The notes under the pieces: model-generated
What the model was told of the DNA's origin: nothing
Seen by the model: the letters and a program-made list of their open reading frames with translations, nothing else
Database searches by the model: none
Made by a program: the position numbers and the translations under genes
Part shown: one piece after another, positions 39,336 to 55,040 of the stretch
Numbering within the stretch: the first letter of the stretch is position 1
Layout of the letters: every line of letters starts with the position of its first letter
Assembly: GCA_965369835.1 (NCBI GenBank)
Contig: CBDUSE010000002.1
Location: forward strand, 1,346-65,345
DNA length: 64,000 nt
From: an uncultured bacterium
Lineage (GTDB): Bacteria; Auribacterota; JABMQX01; JAFGEW01
Direction: 5' to 3'

Positions 39336-39412
39336 TGGCAGGCCAGGAGGGATTCGAACCCCCAACCATCGGATTTGGAGTCCGCTGCTCTACCAGTTAG
39401 AGCTACTGGCCT
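39336..39412 (-). tRNA. tRNA-Trp (anticodon CCA), with CCA 3' end encoded
   Basis: Hand-folded from the reverse complement: acceptor AGGCCAG/CTGGCCT, D-arm GCTC..GAGC, anticodon stem CGGAC/GTCCG? (GCGGA/TCCGA) with loop CTCCAAA, T-arm GGGGG-TTCGAAT-CCCTC, discriminator G, CCA. It is in the classic rpmG-trpT-secE position. Confidence 0.85.
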
Positions 39413-39598: not shown

Positions 39599-40804
<1,206 letters not shown>

Positions 40805-40859
40805 GACGCGCTCAGAGCCTCCTCACATGCGTCGTATATCGCGTGCCTCCCGAAGCCAC

Positions 40860-40932
<73 letters not shown>

Positions 40933-41074
40933 AATCCGGTGGGACAGCGTGCTGCCGGGCCAAAAGGTCGCCAAACGAAGAGTAAAAACAACCCCTCTTT
41001 CAGGCGAGGCCGATCTCGGCCGCCACCCCGTCTGCACACAAAATATCCCTTAGAACGCAAAGAGGTTATTCTTT

Positions 41075-41125
41075 ATTCTATCCGCGCCAGATATGTCAAG
41101 GAGAAAAACCAATTTTTCCGCCCCG
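41075..41125 (-). promoter_or_regulatory. Candidate promoter for the tRNA-Thr-tuf transcript: TTGACA -35, TAGAAT -10-like hexamer (spacer only 13 nt) and an A/T-rich UP-like tract
   Basis: Reverse complement reads ggggcggaaaaattggtttttctccTTGACAtatctggcgcggaTAGAATaaag. This is the only AT-rich tract upstream of the tRNA. The spacing is non-canonical, so the call is weak. Confidence 0.3.
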
Positions 41126-41794
41126 GCTTATAGGCCCTTTTTCGGGCCAAATCGGGGCGGCTTCAGGAACTCCGTCCTCGAGGTTCCTGCCCGGCCGGCG
41201 GCTGGTGAGCGCACCTCGCTCGCGCGCGTCGCGGCGGACGCTCTCGAAAAACGCCAGGTGGGCGGGGTCTCGATAGTCGGAGTAGGTCCACTCGAGCGGC
41301 TGGAACCCCTTGTCCCTGTAGACGAGCATCGGCTGGGCGTAGATCCCGCCTCCGAGGTACACCCTGTACGACGCTTCTTTGGTGGAAGCGATGACGAGGT
41401 TGCTCAGGGTAAGGTAGCCGGGATCGACGTTGAAGACGCGGCGCCCGCCCCGCGCGTGCGCACGCTCGAGAGCCCCGGTCTCTACTTTGGTTTGCCCAAG
41501 CGCGCCCGGGTCCACGGGCCACTCGAAGGCAAGGAACCAGCGCGTCAGCTCCGGCCCCATCTCGGCGGCGTAGTAGCGGCTCCAGGTAAACGGGGCCGCT
41601 TCGCTCGCCATGCGCACCGGGCCGTGGCGCGCCTCCATCAGCGAGGTCGCGAGGCCGAGCGCGTCCTCGCCCGCAGCGAGCACCCCGGCGATCAGCACCG
41701 CGTCCGGCACGCGCTTGCGCCTCTCTTCACCACGCTCCTTTGTAGCAAGACAAACATACGCCGCCCACGGAATCCACAGAAGAAGCTCACCCAC
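41096..41794 (-). CDS. DUF4416-like hypothetical protein. The start is uncertain, and the conserved part begins near VLIAGVL
   Basis: Pattern FTWSRYYAAEMG ... RVFNVDPGYLTLSNLVIASTKE ... RVYLGGGIYAQPMLVY ... WTYSDY matches my recollection of the DUF4416 family. High GC, like the core genome. Confidence 0.5.
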   Translation of the reverse strand: MGELLLWIPWAAYVCLATKERGEERRKRVPDAVLIAGVLAAGEDALGLATSLMEARHGPVRMASEAAPFTWSRYYAAEMGPELTRWFLAFEWPVDPGALGQTKVETGALERAHARGGRRVFNVDPGYLTLSNLVIASTKEASYRVYLGGGIYAQPMLVYRDKGFQPLEWTYSDYRDPAHLAFFESVRRDARERGALTSRRPGRNLEDGVPEAAPIWPEKGPISRGGKIGFSP

Positions 41795-41812
41795 CGGAGG
41801 TGGACCGGCTCC

Positions 41813-42319
41813 CTACTCCCCGGAGAACTGCTTGAGCAGGCGGCTCATCGCCTGCTCGCCCTTGAAGAGGTAGCGGTCGAAGAGCTTGCGGTCGAGGGCG
41901 TTGCCCTCCGCAACGAAGGTCTCGAATGAGTCGAGGGCGAGCTGGAGGTAGTTACACACCTGCAGGAAATCCTGGGCGAACGATACGTCCTGGTGCTCGT
42001 CGAGGGCCGCCTCGCGCTTGAGCTTCGTGCCGCACTTGACCAGCACGGCGAGGAACTTCTCGTTGCGGTCGAGCTCGATGTTCGCCTCCTCTTTCGTCAG
42101 CAGGCCCGCCCGGTAGGCGTTCATCGTCATCACGGTCGAGGAGTAGATCGCCGTCAGGCCGTAGAGCATCAGCTCGACCTTGCCGAAATCGTCCTGTGCA
42201 CGAACCGGCAGCGGCGCCCCCACGAGGCCGATGCCAACCACGACCGCTATCGTCATCCCGATCAGTCTCTTCACTGTCCGCCTCCTTTGAATCGCCTTCG
42301 TCCCTCTCGCCCGCCGCAC
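41813..42319 (-). CDS. Hypothetical secreted protein (signal peptide ... PLPVRAQDD)
   Basis: N-terminal basic region followed by a hydrophobic helix and AxA-like site, then a mostly helical sequence. I recognised no known motif. Confidence 0.45.
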   Translation of the reverse strand: MRRARGTKAIQRRRTVKRLIGMTIAVVVGIGLVGAPLPVRAQDDFGKVELMLYGLTAIYSSTVMTMNAYRAGLLTKEEANIELDRNEKFLAVLVKCGTKLKREAALDEHQDVSFAQDFLQVCNYLQLALDSFETFVAEGNALDRKLFDRYLFKGEQAMSRLLKQFSGE

Positions 42320-42409
42320 GGTAAGCGCTCCGGCCTGCCCGCCCCGCTTGAAGAGACGATACCCCCGCCCACCGTGTTCGTCAAGGCAACACGTGCCCGC
42401 ATAGAGCGC

Positions 42410-42910
42410 TCAGGCCGGTAATCGAAGCAACACCATCAGGACGTACGACGCGAAGTTCATGCCCACGGCGGTCACGGCGGCGCGCCTCAACTGCCAGCGG
42501 CCAAACAGGAGCATGAGTGGAGCGCCCTCGACTCCGAGCGATATCCCAAGGACTGCGAACAGGTGCGGCTGGAAGTTGAAGCCCCAGTAGTCGAAGTACA
42601 CGCCGGTTGTAAGTCCAATGACAGCGGAAGCGCCGTTGAGTGCCCCAGCCAGCAGAAGCGCCCTCGGCCAGCTCGGCCCGTCGATTCTGAAGAGCGCCAG
42701 CTTGATTACGGCCCCCTCAAGGAGCACGATGAGCGCGTAGATGTAGACGATGATGACCGCCTGCCGCGCGGTGAACAAGGATGAACCGACGGGGTTGGCC
42801 CAAGCAGGCGTCGGCGCAAGGGCCACAAGGTCAAGAAGTAAGGGAGCGAAGAGGCGGATCGCGTGTCGGCGCGCGCCCATAGGGCACCTCCTTTCCCCGG
42901 GCGCGCTCAC
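42410..42910 (-). CDS. Hypothetical integral membrane protein (4-5 TM)
   Basis: Strong Shine-Dalgarno (GGAAAGGAGG) and alternating hydrophobic segments. No recognised motif. Confidence 0.5.
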   Translation of the reverse strand: MSAPGERRCPMGARRHAIRLFAPLLLDLVALAPTPAWANPVGSSLFTARQAVIIVYIYALIVLLEGAVIKLALFRIDGPSWPRALLLAGALNGASAVIGLTTGVYFDYWGFNFQPHLFAVLGISLGVEGAPLMLLFGRWQLRRAAVTAVGMNFASYVLMVLLRLPA

Positions 42911-42977
42911 CTCTTATCTCGCCCTGAAAGCCTGCGACGTCAAGAGAGTTGTCGTGACGTGACGTGCCGTGCGGGGA

Positions 42978-43658
42978 TCAGGAGGCGACTTGGCGGAGGA
43001 AGCTCTTCACTTGGTCGAATGCGCTGTCGCTCCAGGGCCAGTAGTCTTTGAAGGCTGCTAGCCCGAGATGCTTCTGAAACTCCTGCTCTGAAGCCAAGAG
43101 CACGTGCATTCTTGCCTTGGACTCTTGCTGAGGCCGCGGCATGCCGCGTTCGTCAAGACACTCGAAGAACCGATCGGCGCACGCCATCGCAGGGCTACCC
43201 TGGAAGGCTCGCAGGCAGAGATCCTCAAAGCTTCCCGGTGTTCTCTCGTCGGGCAACACCATCACCGTGACCTTGACCGGGCCGGTCGATGTGACCAACG
43301 GACGCTTGGGAACCGGTAACTTCACGAGCAGCTTGGGATTCTGCAGAGCACCGCGGATCTTGTCGAATGCCGCTTGTGGGTTGTCATGTGCATCCAGCTC
43401 AATGCCGATGGACTTGACCAGCGGGTCAAACCGCCTGTTCTTTACGACGGCGTCAAGCGCAGGGCGCAGGTTGTTTTCGCCCTGGATGTTGATGACCTGA
43501 ATCTGGCACAAGCCCAAGTGCTTAGCTAGGGCTTTGAAGAAGGGAAGTTCGTCATCGCCTTCGACAAGGAGGAGACTTGGTGCCTCGATCGTGAGGCGCT
43601 CAAAGCCGCGTGCGTGGGCATGTACCAGCTCGTCCTGCTCGGTTTGCCCCTCGTTCAT
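42978..43658 (-). CDS. Small partner protein of the ATPase, with a TOPRIM-like/DUF4276-like N-terminus (LLLVEGDDE...)
   Basis: Its start overlaps the ATPase stop by 4 nt. An N-terminal acidic LVEGxxE motif is followed by downstream Asp-rich segments (IGIELDAHD, VMVLPDE), resembling OLD-family/RloB/DUF4276 partners. Lower GC than the flanks. Confidence 0.5.
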   Translation of the reverse strand: MNEGQTEQDELVHAHARGFERLTIEAPSLLLVEGDDELPFFKALAKHLGLCQIQVINIQGENNLRPALDAVVKNRRFDPLVKSIGIELDAHDNPQAAFDKIRGALQNPKLLVKLPVPKRPLVTSTGPVKVTVMVLPDERTPGSFEDLCLRAFQGSPAMACADRFFECLDERGMPRPQQESKARMHVLLASEQEFQKHLGLAAFKDYWPWSDSAFDQVKSFLRQVAS

Positions 43659-44710
43659 CGCACCTCCAGACGGGCTTTGATCGCTCCCTCGATGGAATCC
43701 TCGTCGTATGTTACAGCGCGCACAACGTCATCAACCCTGTCAAGCCTGTGCAAGCGGAAGTCGTACTCGGGGGATCCGGCGAACGCCCTGTGGGCCGCGA
43801 AGATGCACTCCCAGCTGTGAGTGGTGGCAAAGACCTGCGCATCGAATTTCCGGGCGGCTTCTGCGATGGCTCGCCACAAGTCCACCAGAACTGAGTGGTG
43901 AAGACCGTTTTCAATTTCATCAACGAGAACTACTCCGCCACGAGCAGCTCCAATTGCCAAGATCAAGCTGGTTATGCGGACCATGCCCTCTCCCATGTAT
44001 AGGAGGGGCAATGGTGGGCCATTCGCCACATAGCCGAATCTCAATGGCACGCCGCCCGCTGGGAAGCCCAAGCTCACTTTCTCCAGCCTTGGCTCAATGA
44101 GCTTGAGAGCTTCTAGGAGAACGTCCAAGTGGCCCTTGCCCTCAAGCTCCGTAAATCGCTTTGCGTCCTCGTCCAGGGGCACGCGCGTCCTGGCGGGAAT
44201 GATAATCGTTGGGAAGGGCGCAGATGGACCCTGCCTCAAGAGCTTAGGCATGCCACCCTGAATGAACCAAAAGACTTTGCCTGTGCGTTGCTTTTCGCGG
44301 TACTCAAGCTCGAGTAACTGTGGCAAGAGGAACGCGGGCGCGTCCTTACGCGCGATCTCCTGCAACTCTTTTTGGTCCCGGACGACACGGAGTTGCAGGA
44401 GGCGTTGCGTCGTGCCGTCAAAGGAGCCCGATAGCTTTATCTCTGTGGATGTATCGAGCATGTGGAACAGTGAAGCCCACGGGCCTTCAGCCCATCCTCC
44501 TGTCTCAGATGTCAGCGTTGGCACCCCGCGGTGCCCCTCCACAGCCCTTATGAGATCCGGGTTGTAGGCCCCGCCGTGGAGGAAGAGGGCCTCCAAGAGC
44601 GCGGTCTTTCCGGCGTTGTTCAGGCCTGCTATGAGATTGACGCGGGCCAGGTCTTTGATCGTGAAGTCGCGAAAGCACCGGAAGTTTCTTGCTTCAAACG
44701 ACTGGTACAT
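43655..44710 (-). CDS. ABC-type (AAA_21/OLD-like) P-loop ATPase. Likely start at ATG 44710 (MYQSFEARNFRCF...), preceded by GAGGTG. The track ORF extends to 44815
   Basis: Walker A GLNNAGKTALLEALF, Walker B VVLVDEIENGLH, His-loop ATTHS and a signature-like MGEGMVRIT. No transporter TM partner. Visibly lower GC. Confidence 0.7.
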   Translation of the reverse strand: MYQSFEARNFRCFRDFTIKDLARVNLIAGLNNAGKTALLEALFLHGGAYNPDLIRAVEGHRGVPTLTSETGGWAEGPWASLFHMLDTSTEIKLSGSFDGTTQRLLQLRVVRDQKELQEIARKDAPAFLLPQLLELEYREKQRTGKVFWFIQGGMPKLLRQGPSAPFPTIIIPARTRVPLDEDAKRFTELEGKGHLDVLLEALKLIEPRLEKVSLGFPAGGVPLRFGYVANGPPLPLLYMGEGMVRITSLILAIGAARGGVVLVDEIENGLHHSVLVDLWRAIAEAARKFDAQVFATTHSWECIFAAHRAFAGSPEYDFRLHRLDRVDDVVRAVTYDEDSIEGAIKARLEVR

Positions 44711-44831
44711 GGCGCACCTCTCGAACCGCTGGCATATCATGCCTTGACACGCCTTACGCTTACCAGCCGGTGTTGCCGAAGTCAATTCGATTCGGAAGCC
44801 GCCGGAGACGACCAACCCGAAGAGTGCGAAG

Positions 44832-45014
44832 TCACTCTCTGAGCGTCTCCACTTTCTCGATGGTGAGGGTGTGGTGCGTGTGGTCGTTTTGGACGGTACC
44901 GGTGAGCAGGTAGGGGCCCGGCGTGGCGAGGAGGTGGCCGTAGCGGGCGTAGGCGTCGGGGAAGAGGACGGTCTCGAGGACGCCCGTTATGTCCTCGACG
45001 CTGAGGAAGCGCAT
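44832..45014 (-). pseudogene. dnaE: Orphan C-terminal fragment (60 codons) of DNA polymerase III alpha subunit (OB-fold region)
   Basis: MRFLSVEDITGVLETVLFPDAYARYGHLLATPGPYLLTGTVQ...LTIEKVETL aligns by eye with the DnaE C-terminal OB segment (xxLDDxSGxLEVxLFxDAxxKYxxLLxxDxxLxVxGxV). There is no room for the remaining ~1100 codons, because mrdA ends 45 nt upstream. Confidence 0.5.
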
Positions 45015-45059
45015 CTGCTCGCCGCGCGCGGGAAAATGTGAGAAAAAGAAGAACTGCTT

Positions 45060-46889
45060 CTAATCTCTGGCGAAGTAGGCTTCGAGGAACTCGGCAGCAA
45101 GGGGCGCGGCGGTCCGGCCGCCGGTCTCTCCCTCTTCCACCAACACCACCACCACGATCTCGGGCGCATCCGCCGGCGCGAACGCGATGAACCACGCCAG
45201 GTTCGTGCCCGACTCCTTCGACCCGACCTCGGCGGTGCTTGTCTTGCCCGCCACCTCGAGGTGCTGCAGGTTCCTGAACGCCCGGTAGCCCGTCCCCCCC
45301 TCGCGCGTGACCTCACGGAGCCCCTCCTTGACGAGCGCGAGGCTCTCGGGGCTCAGCTCGATGCGCCGCGACTGCGGCGGAAACTCCTCGACGCCGTCGG
45401 CCCGGACGATCCGGGTGACGAGCCGAGGCTTGAACTGCACGCCGTCCATTGCCACGGCCGAGTAGATCTGCGCGACCTGCAGCGGCGTCACCTCGAGCGG
45501 ATACTGCCCGATGCTCAGGTTGATTGTGTAGCCGGGGAGCCAGGAGCGGTACGTCCTGGCGCGCCAGTCGCTCGAGGCCTGCCATTCGGGAGTCGGGTTG
45601 ACGCCTGCGCGTTCGTTCGGCAGCTTCACGCCGGTCGGCTTGCCCAGCCCAAGCTCGGCCGCGAGCGACACGATCGGCTCGCGGCCGATATGGTGGCCGG
45701 TCTTGTAGAAGAAGACGTTGCACGACTTCTTGATGGCTGTGACGACGTTGACGTCGCCGTGCGAGTGCCGGCGGTAGCAGTCCCACGTGTATCGCCCCAG
45801 GCTGAACGTGCCCGGGCAGTTGAAGATCGTCTCGCCCGTGATGCGCCGCTTCTCGTCGGGCAGGTTGAGCGCCGCGAGCGCTACCACCACCTTGAAGGCG
45901 GAGCCGAGCGGGTACTGGTCGTTGATGCACCGGTTCCAGAGCGGGCGCGACGTGTCTTTGTTGAGGCGTTGGATCTCGGCGACCGCCTCGGGCGGTCTTG
46001 GGATGGCGAAGACGTTCGGGTCGAAGCTCGGCGTGCTGGCAAGCACAAGCACGTCCCCGTTGCGGGGATCCATCGCCACGAGCGCGCCGCGCCTCTCACC
46101 GAGGATCCCATAGGCGAGGCGCTGCAGATCGGTGTTGATCGTCGTGTAGATGTCGCTCCCCGCGGTAGGCTTGTCTTTGTCGTCGAGGATGCGCCGACGC
46201 CGCCCGTGGTTGTCCACCTCGAGCATGGTCGAGCCTTTGCGCCCGTGCAGCTCGGCCTCGAACCAGAGCTCGAGGCCCGCCAGGCCGACCACGTCCCGCC
46301 CATCGTATTCGAGCTCAGGCCACTTGGTCCTGAGCCTCTCAAGTGCCTCCTTGCCCGGCACGAGGCCGGTGTAGCCGAGCGTCTGCGCGGCATGCGCGCC
46401 GTGCCGGTAGCGCCGGGCAAAGTTCGTCATCGGCATGAGGCCCGGCGTGACCGGTTCGAGCACCTTGAGCTTCGTGTACTCCTCAAAAGAAATGTCGCGC
46501 TTGATCGTGACCGGCACGTAGGGGATCACGTTCCGGGGGTCGAGCCGCGCGCGGATCGTCTCCTCGGGCATGCCAAGCACGTCGCGCAGCACCTCGACGA
46601 CCCGCTTGAGCTCAGCCCGGCTCGTCGCCTCGCTGTAGTCCACGCACGCGTCGAGCCGGGCCCGGTTGTCGGCAAGCGGACGGCCGGAGCGGTCAAGGAT
46701 CCGGCCACGCGCCGGCCGCACGGTCACGCCGCGCTTGCGGTTGCGCAGCCCGAGTTCCCGGTAGCGGGTTGCGTGCACGACCTGGAGCGACCAGAGCCGC
46801 AGCATGAGGATCACGAAGCAGATCGTCAGCAGCATGAGGATCGCGCGCGGTCGCCCCGTCAGACCCGGTCGTGGACGCGGCTCAATCAT
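45060..46889 (-). CDS. mrdA: Peptidoglycan D,D-transpeptidase PBP2
   Basis: N-terminal TM anchor, dimerisation domain, and transpeptidase motifs SAFK, SxN (SCN) and KTGT in order. Confidence 0.9.
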   Translation of the reverse strand: MIEPRPRPGLTGRPRAILMLLTICFVILMLRLWSLQVVHATRYRELGLRNRKRGVTVRPARGRILDRSGRPLADNRARLDACVDYSEATSRAELKRVVEVLRDVLGMPEETIRARLDPRNVIPYVPVTIKRDISFEEYTKLKVLEPVTPGLMPMTNFARRYRHGAHAAQTLGYTGLVPGKEALERLRTKWPELEYDGRDVVGLAGLELWFEAELHGRKGSTMLEVDNHGRRRRILDDKDKPTAGSDIYTTINTDLQRLAYGILGERRGALVAMDPRNGDVLVLASTPSFDPNVFAIPRPPEAVAEIQRLNKDTSRPLWNRCINDQYPLGSAFKVVVALAALNLPDEKRRITGETIFNCPGTFSLGRYTWDCYRRHSHGDVNVVTAIKKSCNVFFYKTGHHIGREPIVSLAAELGLGKPTGVKLPNERAGVNPTPEWQASSDWRARTYRSWLPGYTINLSIGQYPLEVTPLQVAQIYSAVAMDGVQFKPRLVTRIVRADGVEEFPPQSRRIELSPESLALVKEGLREVTREGGTGYRAFRNLQHLEVAGKTSTAEVGSKESGTNLAWFIAFAPADAPEIVVVVLVEEGETGGRTAAPLAAEFLEAYFARD

Positions 46890-47376
46890 GGCGACGGTAC
46901 TCCATCCAACGGCGCTCCATCCGGGCGAGCACGAATGGGGCCACGACCGCTGTGGCGGCCGCGGCGGGCAGGAGCGACCGCCTCAGCTCGACGAGGTAGT
47001 TGTGCGTTGGGCCGTAGAGGCGCAGCACGTAGTAGATCACGCCCGAGCAAATCGCCGCCGCAACGAGCACGAGCAGCGCGCGCAGCACGACGGCGCCCTT
47101 GAAGAAGGTCTCCTGCAGGCCACCGACCACGAAACCGACCGCGCCGTAGCCCAGGGCGCAGACGCCGAGCTGTCCGCCGCCGAGCAGATCGGTCGCCAGT
47201 CCCGCCAGCACGCCGAGCAGGAAGCCACGCTGCTCGTCGGCACGCAGCGCAAAGCCCACGAGCGCGATAAGGCACAGATCCATGCGCACCGTGCGGAACA
47301 GCGGCACGAGGCGCGCGAGCGCGCTCTGGGCCAGCGCGCACACCATGAAGACCACGAATGCCTGCAGCGTCTTCAT
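46882..47376 (-). CDS. mreD: Rod shape-determining protein MreD. Start at ATG 47376 (MKTLQAFVVF...), overlapping the mreC stop
   Basis: Small polytopic membrane protein between mreC and mrdA. The longer track ORF would overlap mreC. Confidence 0.7.
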   Translation of the reverse strand: MKTLQAFVVFMVCALAQSALARLVPLFRTVRMDLCLIALVGFALRADEQRGFLLGVLAGLATDLLGGGQLGVCALGYGAVGFVVGGLQETFFKGAVVLRALLVLVAAAICSGVIYYVLRLYGPTHNYLVELRRSLLPAAAATAVVAPFVLARMERRWMEYRRHD

Positions 47377-48233
47377 TGGCCGATGCTGCCCTGCGGAGTG
47401 CGCTCCGTAGCACGAGTCACCACCAGCACCTCGCTCAACCGGTCCAGCGCCGCGGGCCGCTCGAGCACCGCTGTTTGCCACCCGGCCTCCTCGCCGCGCA
47501 CCGCCTTGACCGTGCCGATCTCGAACCCCTCGACGAAATACATCTCGGCGGCCTCGCCCTCCGTGGCCGCGCCTTGGGCGCGCGCGCGCCAGGTGACGAT
47601 CCTGTCGCCGATCTGGACCTCCGGTTCATCGGCAAGGTACTTGAACAGAAGCGTGTGCGTGCTCGTCGTCTCGACGAGGCCGCGCGTGCCGCGACCGGCG
47701 ACCGTTGCGGGCACGGCGCTGCGGGCATCCAGCGCAAGCATCACACGGCTCCAGCCCGGGCCCACTTCGTGAACCCGGCCGACGTACCAGCGGCCCTTGA
47801 CCACCTGCATGCCACGGCGCACGCCGCTCCCCGTGCCGACGTTGATCACCGCCGTGTCGTACCAACTCGTCGGGTCGCGGCCCACCACGCGCGCCGGCAC
47901 GAGCTGCAGGTCGAAGTCCGCCAGCTCGTCGAGCTGGGCCGAGGTCGCGCGCACCGACTCGAGCTCCGCTTCGAGCGCCGCTCGCTCGGCCTCAAGCGTC
48001 TCGACCCGGCGCTTCAGGTCGTCGCGTTCGATCACAATGCCCCGGCCGGCGACCGCCTCGGCGACGCGCCCGAACCATCGCCCCACCGCCTCGACGCCGC
48101 GCAGCACGGGCGTCACCACCGTCATCACCGGCTGGCGCGCCCAGCGCGAGACGGGATGCTTGAGGCTCAGCGCGACGAAGATCGCCACGAGCACAAGCAG
48201 CGTAACGATGATGCGTTGCCGCACGGGCCGCAT
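47373..48233 (-). CDS. mreC: Rod shape-determining protein MreC
   Basis: N-terminal TM followed by coiled-coil (LEAERAALEAELESV), then a beta-rich C-terminal domain with the Gly-rich VINVGTGSGVRRGMQVV. Confidence 0.85.
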   Translation of the reverse strand: MRPVRQRIIVTLLVLVAIFVALSLKHPVSRWARQPVMTVVTPVLRGVEAVGRWFGRVAEAVAGRGIVIERDDLKRRVETLEAERAALEAELESVRATSAQLDELADFDLQLVPARVVGRDPTSWYDTAVINVGTGSGVRRGMQVVKGRWYVGRVHEVGPGWSRVMLALDARSAVPATVAGRGTRGLVETTSTHTLLFKYLADEPEVQIGDRIVTWRARAQGAATEGEAAEMYFVEGFEIGTVKAVRGEEAGWQTAVLERPAALDRLSEVLVVTRATERTPQGSIGQ

Positions 48234-48257
48234 GAGCGCCTTCGGGGCTCCGTTGGG

Positions 48258-48953
48258 TTAGAGTGCGTCGTCGTCCTTGAAGCTATAATAGTCGCCATCG
48301 CCGATGATGATGTGATCGAGGAGCGGGATGCCGACGAGATCGCCCGCCTCCTTGATCCGGCACGTCGTCTCGCGGTCCTCGTGCGAGGGCCGGCAGTCGC
48401 CCGTCGGGTGGTTGTGGCAGACGACGACGGCCGCGCTGCTGGCGCGGATGGCGCTGCGGAACACCTCGCGCGGGTGCACCAGGCTCGCGTTGAGCGTGCC
48501 GACCGAGACTGTCTCGTGGCGGATGAGGCGGTTCTTCGTGTCGAGCAGCAGGATCTTGAACCGCTCCTCCTCGTACAGGCGCATCTCGTCGGCCACGAGC
48601 GCCATCACGTCGCGCGACGTGCGCACCTCAGGCCGCTCCGGCCCGCGCGAGGCGCCGAGCCGTGAGCCGAGCGCGAACGCCGCCTTGATCTGCACCGCCT
48701 TCGCCTCGCCGATCCCCTCGATGGCGCAGAGCTCCTCGATCGGCGCCTTCGCCACGCCCGGCAGCCCGCCGAAGCGGTGGAGCAGCTCGCTCGCCAGCTC
48801 GCGCGCGTTACGCTGCTGTCGTCCCGTGCGCAGGATGATGGCCAGCAGCTCGCTCGTCGAGAGCGCGCCGGCGCCGTGCTTGAGCAGCCGCTCGCGCGGC
48901 CGCTCGTCGGCCGGCAGCTCCTTGATCTTGAAATAGCCCGTCCCCTCGCTCAT
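48258..48953 (-). CDS. radC: RadC-like JAB-domain protein (UPF0758)
   Basis: HhH N-terminus (LSTSELLAIIL) and the JAMM motif HNHPTGD...S. Confidence 0.85.
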   Translation of the reverse strand: MSEGTGYFKIKELPADERPRERLLKHGAGALSTSELLAIILRTGRQQRNARELASELLHRFGGLPGVAKAPIEELCAIEGIGEAKAVQIKAAFALGSRLGASRGPERPEVRTSRDVMALVADEMRLYEEERFKILLLDTKNRLIRHETVSVGTLNASLVHPREVFRSAIRASSAAVVVCHNHPTGDCRPSHEDRETTCRIKEAGDLVGIPLLDHIIIGDGDYYSFKDDDAL

Positions 48954-50566
48954 TGCTCCCCCGCTGCACCAGGCGCTGTCTTCTTGATCTGATCAATCAT
49001 GTCCTTGAACGCCGTGTTGCCCGTCCTGGCGTAGGCGTCGGACAGAAGGCGCTCGACCATCTTCCGATCGCGGCTCGGCGATATGAAGAACTCCCGGATT
49101 CGCTCGCGGCCGTACTTGTTGTGGGCGCGATACGTCTCGATGAGATACCGGGCCACCGCCTCGCCACTGTACGACGTGATGGCCAGGATTGCATGAGAGC
49201 GAATCATCTGGTCAGGCGACTCCGTCATCGGGCCAATGGTCTCGAGGACAAGGGGATCGGCGAGGCGGTCCCGCGGATATGGACACCTCGCCAATTCGAG
49301 CGCCTTGATTGCGCGTTGGTCGTTCGCACTGTGCGTCTGCGCCATCAAGTACGCGAAGGCCTCCTGATCGTCGAACGTGAAGGCAAGCGGCATGCTGGCC
49401 AGCAGCTTGAGTTTGTCGTCGTCGCCCTCGAAGAGAGTGCGCAGCCGCTCGTGCACGCGTGGCCTGTACTTGGGCTCGACGCACTGCCAGGCCCAGGGAA
49501 TTGCTGCTTCGAGTGTGTCTCGATTGTCGCTGTTGAGGGCCTTCATTGCGACGGCTGGGAAACAGTTGCCCCTGCTCCTGGAGCCAAAGGCGAGAGCGCT
49601 GATAACCACCCTGGTCATCCCATCCTGGGAGGCATCGAGTAGGGCCGACACAGGACCGAGGCACTCCTCGTTGCAAACGTTCCCCACGCCGGCGAAGATA
49701 TGCCAGACATCGCCATGACCTTCCTCCCACCAGTGCTTCCCTTGCGCGAACTGGGCGGTCCTCTCCACGATGACACTCAGCTTCCCCGCGTGGTCGTACG
49801 CCGCAACCAGCCGACGCAGGATCTCTTTCCGGTGGTCCAAAGGCTTGTACGGCATGTGCTCGAGCGCCCGCTCGTACGCCTCAATCGCCCTGTCGGGTTC
49901 GCCGAGCTGGTCATACGCTTGACCTAGCACGTCGAGCAGGGCCTCGTCCTCCCGGAACCGTTCGGCGCAGGCAGGCTCGAGCATGGCTCGGACTCGCTCC
50001 GGATCGCCAAATCGCAGTAGCAGTGCGGCGCATGCCGTGTAGGCCGGTGCCCAGTCCGGCATCTCCGACAGACAGTCGTGGATCAGGTCGAGCGCGGCCG
50101 CGCGCTCGCGGGCCTTGAATCGGGCCTCGATGGCCTTCAGGAAGTAGTCGCCGAGCTGCTGTTTCAGCGTCGAGGTGGCGTCCGGCAACGAGGCGACCTG
50201 ATGCCGGTGGATCGTGATCAGCGCCTCCCAGCACTCGGCTTCGGTCAGCTCGGTGATCAACTCGTCCAGGAGGTCGCCGTAGCGCGAATCGATGCTCCTC
50301 AACGGTTCAATGTGGCGCGCCGCGGGGGAGAAGTCGCCTTCGCTTGCGCAGAGGCGGGCCAGTCGCTTAATGGCCCGGAGCCTTTGCTCCTCCAAAAGTT
50401 GGATCCTCTTGCTTCGATCCGTCTCCGTTGCTTCGGTAGCCGCCCCCGTGGGCGAGAGCGTACACACACTCAGCCAGAGGGCGACAAGCAAACAGGTTTT
50501 CAGAGTTCCAGCCACTGGCGCGACCTTGCTCTCGTATCTGCACACGGTGGTGATGGGCGGCACCAC
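48950..50566 (-). CDS. Hypothetical secreted TPR/HEAT-like repeat protein
   Basis: Signal peptide followed by repeated helical-hairpin sequence (AIEAYERALEHMPYKP...). Overlaps the radC start by 4 nt. Confidence 0.5.
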   Translation of the reverse strand: MVPPITTVCRYESKVAPVAGTLKTCLLVALWLSVCTLSPTGAATEATETDRSKRIQLLEEQRLRAIKRLARLCASEGDFSPAARHIEPLRSIDSRYGDLLDELITELTEAECWEALITIHRHQVASLPDATSTLKQQLGDYFLKAIEARFKARERAAALDLIHDCLSEMPDWAPAYTACAALLLRFGDPERVRAMLEPACAERFREDEALLDVLGQAYDQLGEPDRAIEAYERALEHMPYKPLDHRKEILRRLVAAYDHAGKLSVIVERTAQFAQGKHWWEEGHGDVWHIFAGVGNVCNEECLGPVSALLDASQDGMTRVVISALAFGSRSRGNCFPAVAMKALNSDNRDTLEAAIPWAWQCVEPKYRPRVHERLRTLFEGDDDKLKLLASMPLAFTFDDQEAFAYLMAQTHSANDQRAIKALELARCPYPRDRLADPLVLETIGPMTESPDQMIRSHAILAITSYSGEAVARYLIETYRAHNKYGRERIREFFISPSRDRKMVERLLSDAYARTGNTAFKDMIDQIKKTAPGAAGEQ

Positions 50567-50617
50567 CTTCCCTTTAGCGACACTTTCCGACAGGCAAAGT
50601 TCCTTTGATTCCCTCCA

Positions 50618-51904
50618 TCATGAGCTCTCCTCGACTAGAAAGCGCTTGTACGCCGGGGCGCGCTCGCGGCGGAGCTCGACGGTCACGAGCGCCATGTTGT
50701 TGTCGTATTGCGTGTCGAGCACGTGGCCTTCCTCGTGCAGCCGGGCGATCCAGCGCGACTCACGCTGCGGCACGCGGTACGTGGCGATCAGGAGCTCGGC
50801 GGCGAACTGCTCCTCGATCAGCTCGAGGAGCTCGTCGAGCCCCGTGCCGTCTTTCGCCGAGATCGGCGCGGCGTTCGGCACGCGGCGCGCCCAGCGCTCG
50901 GCCACCTCGATGCGCTCGAGCCGGTCAATCTTGTTGAGCGCGGTGGCCATCGGCTTGTCGTGCGCGCCCAGCTCTTTCAGCACGGCCTCAACCGCCTCGA
51001 CCTGTTCCTCGACGGCCGGGTGGCTCACGTCGAGCACGTGCAGCAGCAGGTCGGCCTCGAGCGTTTCCTCGAACGTCGCCTTGAAGGCCTCGACGAGCAT
51101 GTGCGGCAGCTTGCGGATAAAGCCGACCGTGTCGGAAAAGAGCACGGCGCGGCCGCTCGGGATCTCGAGCTTGCGCGTCGTCGGGTCGAGCGTGGCGAAG
51201 AGCTTGTTCTCGACGAACGCGTCGGCGCCCGTGAGCCGGTTGAGCAGCGTGGTCTTGCCCGCGTTCGTGTAGCCGATGATGGCCACCGTGCGCAGGTGGT
51301 GGCGGGCGCGTGCCTTGCGCTGCGTGGCGCGCCGGCGGCGGACCGCTTCGATCTCCTGGCCGAGGTGGTGAAGGCGCTCGCGCACGCGGCGGCGGTCCAC
51401 CTCGATCTGCGTCTCGCCCGGGCCGCGTGTGCCGATGCCGCCCGGCTGCCGCTCGAGGTGCGTCCACAGCCCACGCAGGCGCGGGAGCATGTATTGGTGC
51501 TGGGCGAGCTCGACCTGGAGCTTCGCCTCCTTCGTCTGCGCGCGGCCCGCGAAGATGTCGAGGATGAGCGCCGTGCGGTCCACGATCTTGCGCCCGGTCT
51601 CGCGCTCGAGGTTGCGCTGCTGCGCGGGCGAGAGCTCCTCGTCGAACACGAGCGTGTCGGCGCGCTCGGCCTCGCACAGCAGCTTGAGGTCCTCGACCTT
51701 GCCGCGGCCGATGAGGAACGGCGCCGTTGGCCGGTCGCGCTTGATGATCTCCTCGGTAACGACCGTTGCGCCCGCCGTCTGAACGAGCTGCGCGAGCTCG
51801 GCGAGGTGATCCTGGACCGCCCACTCGTCGGTGTCCCGAAACTGCACACCGACGAGTACGGCTCGCTCCTGCGGCTCCTCCTGTGTTTCGATCAGCTTGG
51901 TCAT
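50618..51904 (-). CDS. hflX: GTPase HflX
   Basis: HflX N-domain followed by a G-domain with GYTNAGKTTLLN (G1), DTVGF (G3) and NKID (G4). Confidence 0.9.
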   Translation of the reverse strand: MTKLIETQEEPQERAVLVGVQFRDTDEWAVQDHLAELAQLVQTAGATVVTEEIIKRDRPTAPFLIGRGKVEDLKLLCEAERADTLVFDEELSPAQQRNLERETGRKIVDRTALILDIFAGRAQTKEAKLQVELAQHQYMLPRLRGLWTHLERQPGGIGTRGPGETQIEVDRRRVRERLHHLGQEIEAVRRRRATQRKARARHHLRTVAIIGYTNAGKTTLLNRLTGADAFVENKLFATLDPTTRKLEIPSGRAVLFSDTVGFIRKLPHMLVEAFKATFEETLEADLLLHVLDVSHPAVEEQVEAVEAVLKELGAHDKPMATALNKIDRLERIEVAERWARRVPNAAPISAKDGTGLDELLELIEEQFAAELLIATYRVPQRESRWIARLHEEGHVLDTQYDNNMALVTVELRRERAPAYKRFLVEESS

Positions 51905-52838
51905 TGCAGGTCCGGCGATTCTCCGTGTGCTTCGAGAGCGTTCACGAGGGCGGCGACGTGGCTGCCGTTAGTCACAACGTCGTACCACCGTATTCTAGCG
52001 TCCTTGCGGAACCAGGTCAACTGGCGCTTGGCGTAGCGGCGCGTCTGCGCCTTGATGGCGCGCCTCGCCGCATCGAGCGTGCGCTCGCCGCGCAAGGCGG
52101 AAGCGATCTCGGCGACGCCTATCGCCTGCATCGCCGTCGGGCTTTGCTCGATGCCGGCGTCCATGAGTCGCTTGACTTCCTCGACCACGCCCGCGTCGAA
52201 CATGGCGTCCACGCGCGCCTCGATGCGCCGGTAGAGCATGGCGCGTGGCATGCGCAAGCCGAGCATGAGGCATGGCCGCGGGCGCTGCCACTCGGTCTGG
52301 TGCTCGCTGATCGGACGGCCCGTTGTCTCGTACACCTCGAGTGCGCGCACGATGCGCCGCAGGTCGTGGCGCGCGATGCGCCCGGCGGCCGCGGGGTCCA
52401 CTTCGGCGAGCCGCGCGTGCAGCGCCTCCGGGCCTCGTGCTTCCGCTTCGGCCCGGAGCCTTGCGCGAACTGTGGACGGCGCTTCCTCGACTTCAAAAAG
52501 GCCGTCGGCCAGCGCCTTGACATACAGCCCCGTGCCGCCGACGACGAGCGGGAGCTTGCCGTGCCCACGGATGGCCACAATTGCCTCGTCGGCGAGGCGC
52601 CTGAACTCGGCCGCGCTGAAGGTCTCGGTCACGTCGAGGATGTCCACGAGGTGGTGGGGCACGCGGGCGCGCTCGTCGGGCGACGGCTTTGCGCTGAGGA
52701 TGTCGAGGCCGCGATAGATCTGCATCGAGTCGGCCGAGACGATTTCTAGAGGGATGCGCTCGGCCAGCGCAAGCGCCGCGGCGCTCTTGCCGACGCCCGT
52801 CGGCCCGACGAGGTAGACCGGTTCGGGCCCGTCCATCA
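51901..52838 (-). CDS. miaA: tRNA dimethylallyltransferase. Start at ATG 52838 (MDGPEPVYLVGPTGVGKS), overlapping the mutL stop
   Basis: P-loop GPTGVGKS, DSMQIYRGLDI and the rest of the IPT family pattern. The track ORF over-extends to 53094. Confidence 0.9.
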
Positions 52839-54719
52839 GCGCCGCTTGAACTCCTTCTCGAGATCGTGTTCGGTCATGCGGATCATCGTCGGTCGCCCGT
52901 GTGGGCAGGTAAACGGCCGTTCGCACGCCGCCAGATCGGCGAGGAGTCGGACGCTCTCGTCGCGCGTGAGCGAGTCGTGCGCTTTGACCGCCGCCGTGCA
53001 GGCCGCGGTGATGAGCGTCTCTTCGGGCCGTCGGCGGTACTCCTTCTGATTCGCATCCACCTCGTCGAGGATATCGCGAAAGACCCCGTCCCATTCGGCG
53101 TCCGGCATGTAGGTCGGCATCGCCTCGACGAGGACCGTATTCGGCCCGAACGCGCGCAGCTCGAAGCCCATCCGCCTAAACAGGTCGAGGTGCTCCTCGA
53201 TCACGAGCGCCTCGCGGCGCGTCAGCTCGATCGTGCGCGGCACGAGCAGCCGTTGCGACGTGCGGCCCCGGCCGTCGAGCGCCGCCATGATCCGCTCGTA
53301 CAGTACCCGCTCATGCGCGGCGTGCTGGTCAACGATGACAAGCCCCTCGTCGTTCTCGGCGAGTAGATACGACTCCAGAAGCTGCGCCAGGAATTTGAGG
53401 CTGACCGACCCGTGCCTCACCTCGGGCTGCTCACGCGGTTCTTCGCGTTTGGCGTCGCCAACACGCTCCGGGGCGATCTCGACGTCAGGTTCTGTTCCCT
53501 TGACGAGCTCGCGGCCCGTCTTCCGCTCGAAAAGCTCGGCGGCTGCCGCGCCGACCGGCTCGTTCTTCGCCCGGAACTGCTTGGCCGACGACTCGGCCAG
53601 CTCCTTCTCGAACGCGGTCCGTTCGGCCGCCGGCTGTTCCTCTTCCGGCGCCGCAGGCGCCTTTTGATCTGTGTAATCTGTGCCAATCGGTGGTTCATTC
53701 TTTGTACTCACGCTCGCCGTCGGCGCGAGGTCGGCGCCCTTGAGCGCCTCGGCCACGGCGGCCGCGATCGCTTCCTTGAGATCCCACTCGTTACGGAAGC
53801 GGACCTGGCGCTTCGTCGGGTGCACGTTCGGGTCCACCTGCGCCGGGTCCACCTCGATGAACAGCACCGCCACCGGGTATCGCCCGCGCATCAGGAGCGA
53901 CTTGAACCCCACCTCGACGGCGCGGCTCACGCCGGTGTGCCAGATCGGTCGCCGGTTCACGTAGTAGTATTGCTGCATCCGGTTCGAGCGCGTCAGCGCG
54001 GGCTTGCCGACGTAGCCGCTGATCGAGAAGCCGCCCGCGTCGTGTTCGACCGGCACCATCTGCTTGAGCATCTGCCGCCCGAAGACGGCCGCCATGCGGT
54101 CGGCCAGAGAACCCGCCTTCGGCATGAGCGCCACGACCTTGCCGTTGTGCATGAGCGAGACGTACACGCCCGAGTGCGCGAGCGCGTAGGTGTCCACGCA
54201 GCGGGCGATTTCGCCCATCTCGCGCTCGGCGCTCCGGAGGTACTTGCGCCGCGCGGGCACGTTGCGGAAGAGCTGCTTCACCTCGACCGTCGTGCCCGGC
54301 GCGCGGCCGACTTCGACGACGTTGATGAGTCGCCCGCCGTCGGCCTTGACGAAGGTGCCGGTCTCGGCGCCGCGCTCACAGGTAGTGATCGTCAGGCGCG
54401 AGACCGACGCAATCGAGGGAAGCGCCTCGCCGCGGAAGCCCATCGTCGTGAGGCTCGCGAGGTCGCCCGGCTCATGGAGCTTGCTCGTCGAGTGACGCTC
54501 GAGGCAGAGGATCGCGTCGTCGCGGTTCATGCCGGTGCCGTCGTCGCTCACGCGCACCAAGCTCCGGCCGCCGCCGGCGACCTCGACCTCGATCTCGCGC
54601 GCCCCCGCGTCGAGCGCGTTCTCGACGAGCTCCTTAACGACCGACGCGGGCCGCTCGATCACCTCGCCCGCGGCGATCTTGTTCGCCATGTCCTCGCTGA
54701 GCACCTCGATGCGGTTCAT
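52836..54719 (-). CDS. mutL: DNA mismatch repair protein MutL
   Basis: GHKL ATPase motifs (IAAGEVIERPASVVKELVENALDAG, DDGTGM) and a C-terminal dimerisation domain. Confidence 0.9.
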   Translation of the reverse strand: MNRIEVLSEDMANKIAAGEVIERPASVVKELVENALDAGAREIEVEVAGGGRSLVRVSDDGTGMNRDDAILCLERHSTSKLHEPGDLASLTTMGFRGEALPSIASVSRLTITTCERGAETGTFVKADGGRLINVVEVGRAPGTTVEVKQLFRNVPARRKYLRSAEREMGEIARCVDTYALAHSGVYVSLMHNGKVVALMPKAGSLADRMAAVFGRQMLKQMVPVEHDAGGFSISGYVGKPALTRSNRMQQYYYVNRRPIWHTGVSRAVEVGFKSLLMRGRYPVAVLFIEVDPAQVDPNVHPTKRQVRFRNEWDLKEAIAAAVAEALKGADLAPTASVSTKNEPPIGTDYTDQKAPAAPEEEQPAAERTAFEKELAESSAKQFRAKNEPVGAAAAELFERKTGRELVKGTEPDVEIAPERVGDAKREEPREQPEVRHGSVSLKFLAQLLESYLLAENDEGLVIVDQHAAHERVLYERIMAALDGRGRTSQRLLVPRTIELTRREALVIEEHLDLFRRMGFELRAFGPNTVLVEAMPTYMPDAEWDGVFRDILDEVDANQKEYRRRPEETLITAACTAAVKAHDSLTRDESVRLLADLAACERPFTCPHGRPTMIRMTEHDLEKEFKRR

Positions 54720-55040
54720 CGCCGAAAAAACTCCTCCTCAAGAACCCCGACGCAGCGTAGCGCACACACGGGCGCGTGTCAAACTGCGCACAAGCGGCGG
54801 CAGACGGCGGGCAAGATGCCCGCCACACAGCCGGCGAGACGCCGGCGCTACGCCAAATCGTGCGGCCCAGCAGGATACCGGCGCTACGCCGCACCGTACC
54901 ACACAGCCGGCGTGACGCTGGCACTACGAGACGGCGACAAATGTAGCGCCGGCATCTTGCCGGCTGTCTCGGGGGCGTCTCGCCCCCGGGTTGACCACGG
55001 GCCGCGGTCACGCCCGCCGACCGGTTCGCCACAGTCCTTG

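Follow-up and report, generated by a model that had tools for sequence, protein, structure and literature searches.

The window, by which we mean the whole stretch of 64,000 nucleotides analysed here, contains the gene order mrdA-'dnaE-(AbiL)-g166-g168-DUF4416-tuf, in which 'dnaE is a short orphan ORF resembling the 3' end of a DNA polymerase III alpha gene. The features of this region are the following.

45060..46889, minus strand: mrdA (PBP2), 609 aa, with PBP_dimer and Transpeptidase domains (Pfam); closes the radC-mreC-mreD-mrdA block that became attached to the dnaE tail
45032..45059, minus strand: native 3' flank of mrdA, 28 nt, up to the new junction (J1), beyond which lies the dnaE segment (alignment)
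44848..45031, minus strand: 184-nt repeat copy, also present at the 3' end of the complete dnaE elsewhere in the genome (BLASTN)
44832..45014, minus strand: orphan ORF of 60 codons, matching the final 60 of dnaE (from OB strand beta2 through to the stop codon; Pfam, NCBIfam, tblastn)
42951..44846, minus strand: window-specific insertion, 1,896 nt, with an AbiL/PDC-M38-like pair (alignment to contig L044, GC content)
43655..44815, minus strand: AAA_15/AAA_21 ATPase, AbiLi/PDC-M38A-like, likely true start ATG at 44710 (Pfam, PADLOC)
42978..43658, minus strand: DUF3226/PDC-M38B-like partner with a weak OLD-like TOPRIM match (Pfam DUF3226 8.3e-27; PADLOC PDC-M38B 4.4e-11)
41096..42910, minus strand: g166, g168 and the DUF4416 gene, native downstream neighbours of dnaE (same order right after intact dnaE in L002-L005), then tRNA-Thr and tuf
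40860-40932: tRNA-Thr

The product of the orphan ORF, MRFLSVEDITGVLETVLFPDAYARYGHLLATPGPYLLTGTVQNDHTHHTLTIEKVETLRE, matches the Pfam OB fold PF01336 (E=3.6e-4) over profile positions 18-75 of 75, so that strand beta1 is missing, and its score of 20.9 bits lies under the gathering cut-off of 27. It is also matched by the NCBIfam DnaE models, NF005616 with E=3.2e-9 and NF004226 over model positions 1001-1063 of 1146. A word-indexed protein search gave a single candidate, being too insensitive for a 60-aa query, whereas an exhaustive search and a cluster look-up were effective. The former returned 742 matches at E<=1e-3, the full-length proteins (1010-1120 aa) being aligned at their extreme C-terminus; the latter placed the public gene call P0270, identical to the orphan product, in a 90% cluster with intact DnaE proteins of 1117-1120 aa. 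With the DnaE of an intact relative as tblastn query, residues 1054-1117 were the sole match in the 64-kb window (92% identity), and neither a full dnaE nor any other DnaE segment was detected there. The significant match to the OB part of DnaE is genuine and far above chance, and the original prediction of a DnaE C-terminal OB fragment in a region devoid of a complete dnaE is confirmed.

Set against the OB fold at the C-terminus of DnaE (C-family DNA polymerase III alpha), the orphan covers the same model positions (~1001-1063) and the last residues of the lineage's own 1117-aa DnaE, but it is a partial domain only. The catalytic domains are absent, and PHP, pol3-alpha, finger, HHH_6 and a complete OB fold, all five of which are carried by the intact relatives, are not united in its ORF. 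The parent protein itself stops at the OB fold, with nothing that corresponds to the DnaE model past position ~1063, and passes the equivalog cut-off of neither DnaE nor error-prone DnaE2.

Intact dnaE genes align to the window only across 44848-45031, with 95-97% identity: 96.7% (6 mismatches) to positions 5006-5189 of contig L042 and 95.1% to positions 3249-3430 of contig L045 (BLASTN). Homology begins 17 nt upstream of the orphan ATG, at a point corresponding to the loop that links OB strands beta1 and beta2. The repeat comprises the last ~64 codons of dnaE and, probably, about 23 nt past its stop; the segment probably extends to about 220 nt. Comparison of the 3' ends, which had been proposed together with the original prediction, was decisive. 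Since an intact dnaE with a 95-97% identical 3' end is present in the same assemblies, the fragment is a duplicated segment and not the diverged relic of a lost gene. The alternative that dnaE once followed mrdA, or that a deletion fused two loci, with all but the last 60 codons lost and the polymerase gene gone from the genome, is left with a very small chance. It would account for a window holding DnaE residues 1054-1117 only and for an ORF without strand beta1, but the intact gene occurs in the same assembly, and in the same MAG, as the fragment. Moreover, it is joined there to the former downstream genes of mrdA, a reciprocal junction that cannot arise by deletion.

The relatives compared are all metagenome contigs (<=65 kb) or MAGs. 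In the outgroup contigs L002-L005, an intact dnaE (1057-1076 aa) lies directly upstream of g166/g168/DUF4416(/tuf) and is itself preceded by GAF-GGDEF. In two others, L006 and L007, mrdA (77% amino acid identity) is followed by YjbQ/FkbM and then by the 286-aa gene and the PAS gene, and the OB fragment is absent. Distant relatives therefore show both ancestral adjacencies, GGDEF-dnaE-g166-g168-DUF4416-tuf and radC-mreCD-mrdA-YjbQ-286aa-PAS, with the segment in single copy.

Both reciprocal novel junctions, each with the duplicated segment, are found together in one genome in ERZ25748669 and, independently, in the NCBI MAG GCA_030669985.1. In the first, L043 (NODE_316, coverage 6.90) is 99.992% identical to the window over 55014..41751, and L042 (NODE_359, coverage 6.61) carries GGDEF-intact dnaE (1117 aa)-AP_endo(-)-YjbQ-...-PAS; the two contigs were assigned to one genome by their shared assembly, similar coverage and the logic of reciprocal junctions. 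In the MAG, L044 has the order mrdA-fragment-g166-g168, and L045 has an intact 1120-aa dnaE followed by downstream sequence of the L042 type. The mrdA/'dnaE junction is of the same type in four assemblies (the window, L043, L001 and L044), and in all four the 28-nt flank 45032..45059, which has no similarity to intact dnaE, is conserved on the mrdA side. A chimeric join made by the assembler is hardly credible. The relatives are indeed metagenome assemblies and a 184-nt repeat can mislead assemblers, but no repeat boundary shared with mrdA coincides with the junction, which recurs with strain-specific SNPs in the four assemblies; these represent three or more samples.

We consider it probable, at roughly 0.8, that the orphan is a copy of a dnaE tail duplicated during a partner exchange between two chromosomal loci. 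The reciprocal junctions in ERZ25748669 and GCA_030669985.1 and the ancestral gene orders of the outgroups bear out the earlier view that the fragment marks a past rearrangement. The accompanying proposal, that the integration of an element displaced a dnaE 3' end to this place, is contradicted by the gene order. The orphan occupies the native position of dnaE relative to g166-g168-DUF4416-tuf, and the novel side is that of mrdA; downstream of the orphan, L044 retains the outgroup-type dnaE 3' region and the g166 upstream region.

Before the event, one locus (IV) would have read GGDEF-dnaE-g166-g168-DUF4416-tuf and the other (V) radC-mreC-mreD-mrdA-(AP_endo)-YjbQ-286aa-PAS. A first break ~28 nt past the mrdA stop and a second, staggered one within the dnaE 3' end would have left the segment at both new junctions, giving mrdA-'dnaE-g166...tuf in the window (junction III) and GGDEF-complete dnaE-AP_endo-YjbQ elsewhere in the genome (junction I). 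The duplication at the breakpoint would have kept the polymerase gene whole. A segment present at both junctions is the signature of a reciprocal rearrangement with breakpoint duplication, most simply an inversion. We infer that the two copies are inverted on one chromosome, which a single reciprocal exchange would have cut in two had the sites been in direct orientation; cointegration of two replicons would yield the same two junctions. The exchange may have taken one step, through staggered breaks, or two, through a small duplicative insertion followed by homologous recombination. Block transposition was rejected, as it requires the DNA to be broken three times and the block to be circularly permuted, and it is at odds with the outgroups, where mrdA and YjbQ are linked.

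The stop codon of mrdA is TAG and is followed by 15 sense codons, KQFFFFSHFPARGEQ, and then by the orphan ATG, so that the orphan ORF begins 45 nt downstream of the stop in the frame of mrdA, exactly as had been noted. It is very unlikely that this arrangement reflects a functional small gene, or a PBP2-OB fusion made by TAG readthrough, with an acquired role. The orphan ORF is open and the 15-codon spacer free of stops in the window, L001 and L044, and across three lineages 4 of the changes in the orphan are nonsynonymous and 4 are synonymous (dN/dS about 0.33; p about 0.11 in a binomial test that is underpowered with 8 substitutions). However, these 8 lineage-specific changes do not depart significantly from neutrality, being compatible with neutrality or weak constraint, and the open frame is accounted for either by the youth of the copy, 95-97% identical to its source, or by gene conversion, of which there are hints. 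The last five codons vary between strains, and the product would be an OB fold without strand beta1 and with a sub-gathering score. The sequence upstream of the orphan ATG, GGCGAGCAG, has no Shine-Dalgarno-like motif comparable with GGAGG (g166) or GAGAGG (ATPase). Consensus scans for promoters and terminators found neither, and an Rfam scan of 42800-45300 returned nothing. The C-terminus of PBP2 is periplasmic, where an OB piece of a DNA polymerase makes little sense, and the shared frame is consistent with a 1-in-3 chance; the suggested readthrough fusion is accordingly not retained. The orphan is most likely a non-functional scar of the exchange.

Immediately downstream, the window differs from L044. 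The latter aligns to 46056..44847 (97.6%) and to 42950..41668 (82.0%), and in it 36 nt replace 42951..44846. The insertion, which has replaced the final 15 nt of the orphan ORF together with its original 3' flank, has a GC content of 58.5% compared with 67.7% for mrdA. Its ATPase matches PDC-M38A (1.9e-56) and AbiLi (1.8e-53) in PADLOC, with alignments beginning at residue 36, and the adjacency of A (ATPase) and B (DUF3226-type) components qualifies the pair as a candidate AbiL/PDC-M38 defence system. The fragment thus does abut a low-GC defence module, as originally described, but the suspected link between them did not hold. The pair is absent from L044, which has mrdA-fragment-g166 without it, and is a separate insertion that arrived later, just downstream of the orphan.

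The same data bear on the possibility that the dnaE 3' end was the target of an integrative element (the defence module itself or a wider island) that brought a replacement and left the original orphaned at its far border. This is extremely unlikely, even though the orphan directly adjoins the lower-GC module and interstrain homology ends close to the end of the ORF. Besides the evidence of L044, the module encodes by Pfam only the ATPase and the DUF3226 protein, with no integrase, and its ends show no direct repeats or shared k-mers of >=7 nt and no target-site duplications. Furthermore, what lies between the orphan and any complete dnaE is core DNA (mutL, miaA, hflX, radC, mreCD, mrdA), and the intact copy is flanked by the former neighbours of mrdA.

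Contig L001, from ERZ23498719, presents a third combination, mrdA-'dnaE-AP_endo, with the 5' junction of the orphan and the 3' end and downstream genes of the intact copy. It fits the two-step model or a reversible flip, but the 184-nt repeat may also have led the assembler to a mis-join. A flip is a doubtful extension: in natural populations, recombination between the two dnaE-tail copies would turn a large part of the chromosome back and forth between two orientations, and the same tail would have served as the conserved left border when a divergent AbiL-g166-g168 tract was acquired. The two states may be represented by the window and L044 on one side and by L001, with mrdA-'dnaE joined to AP_endo-YjbQ, on the other. 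If this were true, each flip would swap the 3' end of dnaE and the attached downstream operon and move the tuf-rpoBC cluster, and the duplicated 3' end of an essential gene would be a standing hotspot for structural variation and island acquisition.

Under the exchange between two loci that we favour, the orphan polymerase fragment is explained by a concrete evolutionary event, as an ordinary but cleanly documented rearrangement relic, and the AbiL/PDC-M38 pair is an independent and later arrival. The 60-aa ORF should consequently not be annotated as a gene, although P0270 has exactly its sequence. The locus would be a clean bacterial case of a reciprocal rearrangement in which a polymerase gene survived a breakpoint in its own sequence through duplication of the broken segment. 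Since the duplication polarises the event, it can be used as a phylogenetic marker for this lineage. The mechanism of breakpoint duplication is well documented in flies but, to our knowledge, has rarely been pointed out for bacteria.

Three known types of structure invite comparison. With the att duplications of integrative elements in the 3' ends of tRNA or protein genes, the locus shares a duplicated gene tail beside acquired, lower-GC defence genes, but it differs in the lack of a recombinase and of direct repeats around the module, in the occurrence of the orphan without the module, and in the core chromosome lying between the two copies.

Large inversions in bacteria are mostly ascribed to repeats that were already present, IS elements and rrn operons among them, and that recombine with each other (PMC9584773); no such repeat was seen at the junctions studied here. 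Reversible, repeat-mediated inversions include the unstable rearrangements of Staphylococcus aureus (PMC6778178) and replication-associated inversions (PMC9584773). The two dnaE-tail copies resemble these systems as a repeat pair able to recombine, L001 joining the 5' part of the orphan to the 3' part of the intact copy, and sites 111 and 126 are common to both repeat copies of the same genome. In contrast to them, the repeat measures only 184-220 nt and derives from the 3' end of an essential gene rather than from an IS or rrn sequence, and the alternative isomer is represented by one metagenome scaffold, perhaps a mis-join.

In Drosophila, inverted duplications of single-copy sequence were found at the breakpoints of 17 of 29 inversions and explained by staggered breaks, and often just one of the two breakpoints was duplicated (Ranz et al. 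2007, PMC1885836). That model comes from Drosophila, and here the copies are known from separate contigs, their inverted orientation being deduced. The likeness is nevertheless close: an ancestrally single-copy coding stretch is found at each of the two junctions that a reciprocal rearrangement created, one breakpoint of two is duplicated, one of the copies is a decaying or non-functional gene fragment, and the duplication polarises the event, with the outgroups in the ancestral state.

The mrdA gene is followed in the same frame by a short stand-alone ORF, translated as MRFLSVEDITGVLETVLFPDAYARYGHLLATPGPYLLTGTVQNDHTHHTLTIEKVETLRE, whose ATG lies 45 nt (15 sense codons) beyond the mrdA TAG.

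44832..45014, minus strand, orphan dnaE-tail ORF of 60 codons
45060..46889, mrdA (PBP2, 609 aa; Pfam PBP_dimer + Transpeptidase)

The original prediction that this ORF is a C-terminal OB fragment of DnaE is borne out. It matches the NCBIfam DnaE model NF005616 (E=3.2e-9) and aligns with positions 1001-1063 of the 1146 of a second, NF004226. Of 1.84 billion representatives searched exhaustively, 742 matched it at E<=1e-3, the full-length ones being proteins of 1010-1120 aa aligned by their extreme C-terminus. The orphan lacks OB strand beta1 and any catalytic domain, and the Pfam OB fold PF01336 matches it at profile positions 18-75 of 75 only, with a score below the gathering threshold.

Relatives carry the two loci in a different arrangement. 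In contig L002, the dnaE 3' end, 81% identical and including strand beta1, is followed by the small genes g166 and g168, then DUF4416, tuf, rpmG, secE, nusG, rplKAJL and rpoB, which is exactly the order of the window below 42910. The dnaE genes of three Verrucomicrobiota MAG contigs (L003-L005) are intact (1057-1076 aa, with PHP, pol3-alpha, finger, HHH_6 and OB domains), with GAF-GGDEF upstream and g166/g168/DUF4416 directly downstream, and the C-termini of their products are 84-86% identical to the orphan. Since dnaE precedes the same g166/g168/DUF4416 genes in all four contigs, the orphan occupies the native end position of dnaE, and the novel junction is the mrdA side. On contigs L006 and L007, mrdA (77% identical to that of the window) also lies in a radC-mreC-mreD-mrdA block; it is followed by YjbQ/UPF0047 or an FkbM methyltransferase gene, respectively, then by a 286-aa gene and a PAS protein gene, and no OB fragment follows mrdA on either contig.

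The extreme dnaE 3' end varies among relatives (L004, about 2740-2880; L005, about 4340-4450; L002, 307-388), the variants including tandem VEVVD-type repeats in L004 and extensions of 25-35 codons that overlap the g166 upstream region; only 0-3 nt separate the dnaE stop from the g166 start. In the window, tuf belongs to the classic tuf-secE-nusG-rplKAJL-rpoBC cluster and lies between two tRNA genes; an ORF at 40792-41037 was rejected as a spurious translation across the second.

39336-39412, tRNA-Trp, flanking tuf
40860-40932, tRNA-Thr, flanking tuf

The intact gene was found by a search with the L003 DnaE. Its product, P0153 (1117 aa), is 93% identical at the C-terminus to the window orphan and 97% to that of contig L001; besides three intact proteins of 1117-1120 aa, its 90% cluster contains a pair of 60-aa ORFs, of which P0270 has exactly the sequence of the window ORF. 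This parent dnaE, like others of its clade, stops with the OB fold; the DnaE model beyond position ~1063 has no counterpart in it. Of the NCBIfam cut-offs, it clears that of the TIGR00594 superfamily alone, reaching neither the DnaE equivalog cut-off (807 vs 1002) nor that of error-prone DnaE2 (700 vs 939).

Clade dnaE genes ending at the OB fold (1057-1120 aa)
L042, 1852-5205
L003, 6974-10204
L005, 1277-4450

Contig L042 (ENA ERZ25748669 NODE_359, coverage 6.61) carries GAF-GGDEF, intact dnaE, AP_endonuc_2 (minus strand), YjbQ, DUF2905, Pkinase (minus strand), 268-aa, 132-aa and PAS kinase genes, an order in which dnaE is attached to the former downstream genes of mrdA. In the same assembly, contig L043 (NODE_316, coverage 6.90) has mutL-miaA-hflX-TPR-radC-mreC-mreD-mrdA-60-aa ORF-AAA_15-DUF3226-g166-g168 and is 99.992% identical to window 55014..41751. 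In the NCBI MAG GCA_030669985.1, contig L044 has mrdA-60-aa ORF-g166-g168, and L045 an intact dnaE (1120 aa) with a minus-strand gene after it; through the AP_endo region, L045 and L042 are 97.8% identical. Both reciprocal junctions are therefore found together in two independent assemblies.

Intact dnaE genes match the window at 44848..45031 only, a 184-nt repeat with 96.7% identity to L042 and 95.1% to L045. The similarity starts 17 nt upstream of the orphan ATG, in the loop between strands beta1 and beta2, and is preceded by 28 nt of native mrdA flank. Direct reading of the alignment of L044 with the intact copies extends it roughly 23 nt past the orphan stop, to TTCGCAA, so the original duplication probably spanned about 220 nt. 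In L044, the sequence after the orphan is still the outgroup dnaE 3'-extension/g166 upstream sequence, TTGAC...GAGATAAG.

We interpret these junctions as two loci that swapped partners, with a clean break after mrdA and a duplicated one at the dnaE 3' end; because of that duplication, dnaE stayed whole in one product and a tail of ~64 codons was left in the other. An inversion would be the simplest viable topology, since the chromosome would be split if directly oriented sites underwent a single exchange. The same outcome would also be reached in two steps, the first a small duplicative insertion behind mrdA and the second homologous recombination with the intact gene.

Contig L001 (ENA sample ERZ23498719) combines both types. 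Its 60-aa ORF, P0001, is 92% identical to the orphan, and its DNA is 97.4% identical to window 46354..44831, the similarity ending just past the orphan's stop codon. The 5' junction is orphan-type (diagnostic sites -13, -5, -4); the 3' end is intact-type, and after it come AP_endo, a truncated YjbQ and the genes for the 286-aa and PAS proteins. Positions 1324-2214 match L042 5006-5896 at 97%, and about 0.7 kb and about 2.4 kb of L042 (YjbQ 3' part, DUF2905, Pkinase) are missing from L001 1324-5365. An N-gap within its AP_endo gene is spurious, as the contig ends overlap. L001 may be an alternative chromosomal isomer from recombination between the two copies, an intermediate on the two-step route or the product of misassembly across the 184-nt repeat. 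Within one assembly, orphan and intact copy agree at sites 111 and 126, which hints at gene conversion between them.

As for function, direct reading found no good Shine-Dalgarno motif before the orphan, a consensus scan no promoter or terminator and Rfam no match at it. Over codons 1-56, the orphan lineage has accumulated four nonsynonymous changes in 126.7 sites and four synonymous changes in 41.3 (dN/dS about 0.33), a difference from neutrality that is not significant (p about 0.11, binomial on 8 changes). The open frame is explained by the youth of the copy, which is 95-97% identical to its source. The established topology of PBP2 would put a C-terminal extension in the periplasm. The suggested readthrough fusion of PBP2 to the OB segment was not borne out: a polymerase piece would land in that compartment, and nothing supports the fusion.

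Between the orphan and g166, window 42951-44846 (1,896 nt, 58.5% GC) stands in place of 36 nt of L044. It contains genes for an AAA_15/AAA_21 ATPase (PADLOC PDC-M38A 1.9e-56, AbiLi 1.8e-53) and a DUF3226 protein (PDC-M38B 4.4e-11; Pfam for both families), with a weak OLD-type TOPRIM match; 42978-44815 is a two-gene AbiL/PDC-M38-like candidate defence module. It encodes no recombinase, and direct repeats were not found at its flanks. The final 15 nt of the orphan ORF are overwritten by the module, which accounts for the strain differences in the ORF's last five codons. Window 41668-42950 (g166-g168) is only 82% identical to L044 1250-2549, the mrdA side 97.6%, which suggests that homologous replacement by a divergent tract brought in the module; the low identity could also reflect fast-evolving small genes. 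The module, absent from L044, postdates the dnaE duplication and is independent of it.

Other stand-alone tails were also seen. About eleven of the best 150 of the 742 matches start exactly at the conserved Met of strand beta2, and two short, low-coverage metagenome contigs from unrelated samples carry DnaE-OB ORFs of 114 and 63 aa (L046 138-482; L047 139-330) with non-DnaE sequence upstream. Tails of this kind may have arisen repeatedly, or gene calling in broken genes may have produced them artefactually. P0003 (JGI 3300042731), a 157-aa DnaE C-terminal ORF 76% identical to the orphan, begins 187 nt inside a 1195-bp contig, away from the contig edge, and could represent either a further truncated copy or a gene with a frameshift.

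We conclude that the orphan is the breakpoint-duplication scar of a chromosomal rearrangement, the complete gene being preserved at the reciprocal junction. Bacterial inversions are mostly ascribed to pre-existing repeats (PMC9584773). In Drosophila, single-copy genes are well documented to be duplicated in inverted orientation where inversions broke the chromosome, in many cases at just one of the two breakpoints, and staggered breaks explain this (PMC1885836). The orphan dnaE tail adds another example to this known phenomenon of breakpoint duplication.
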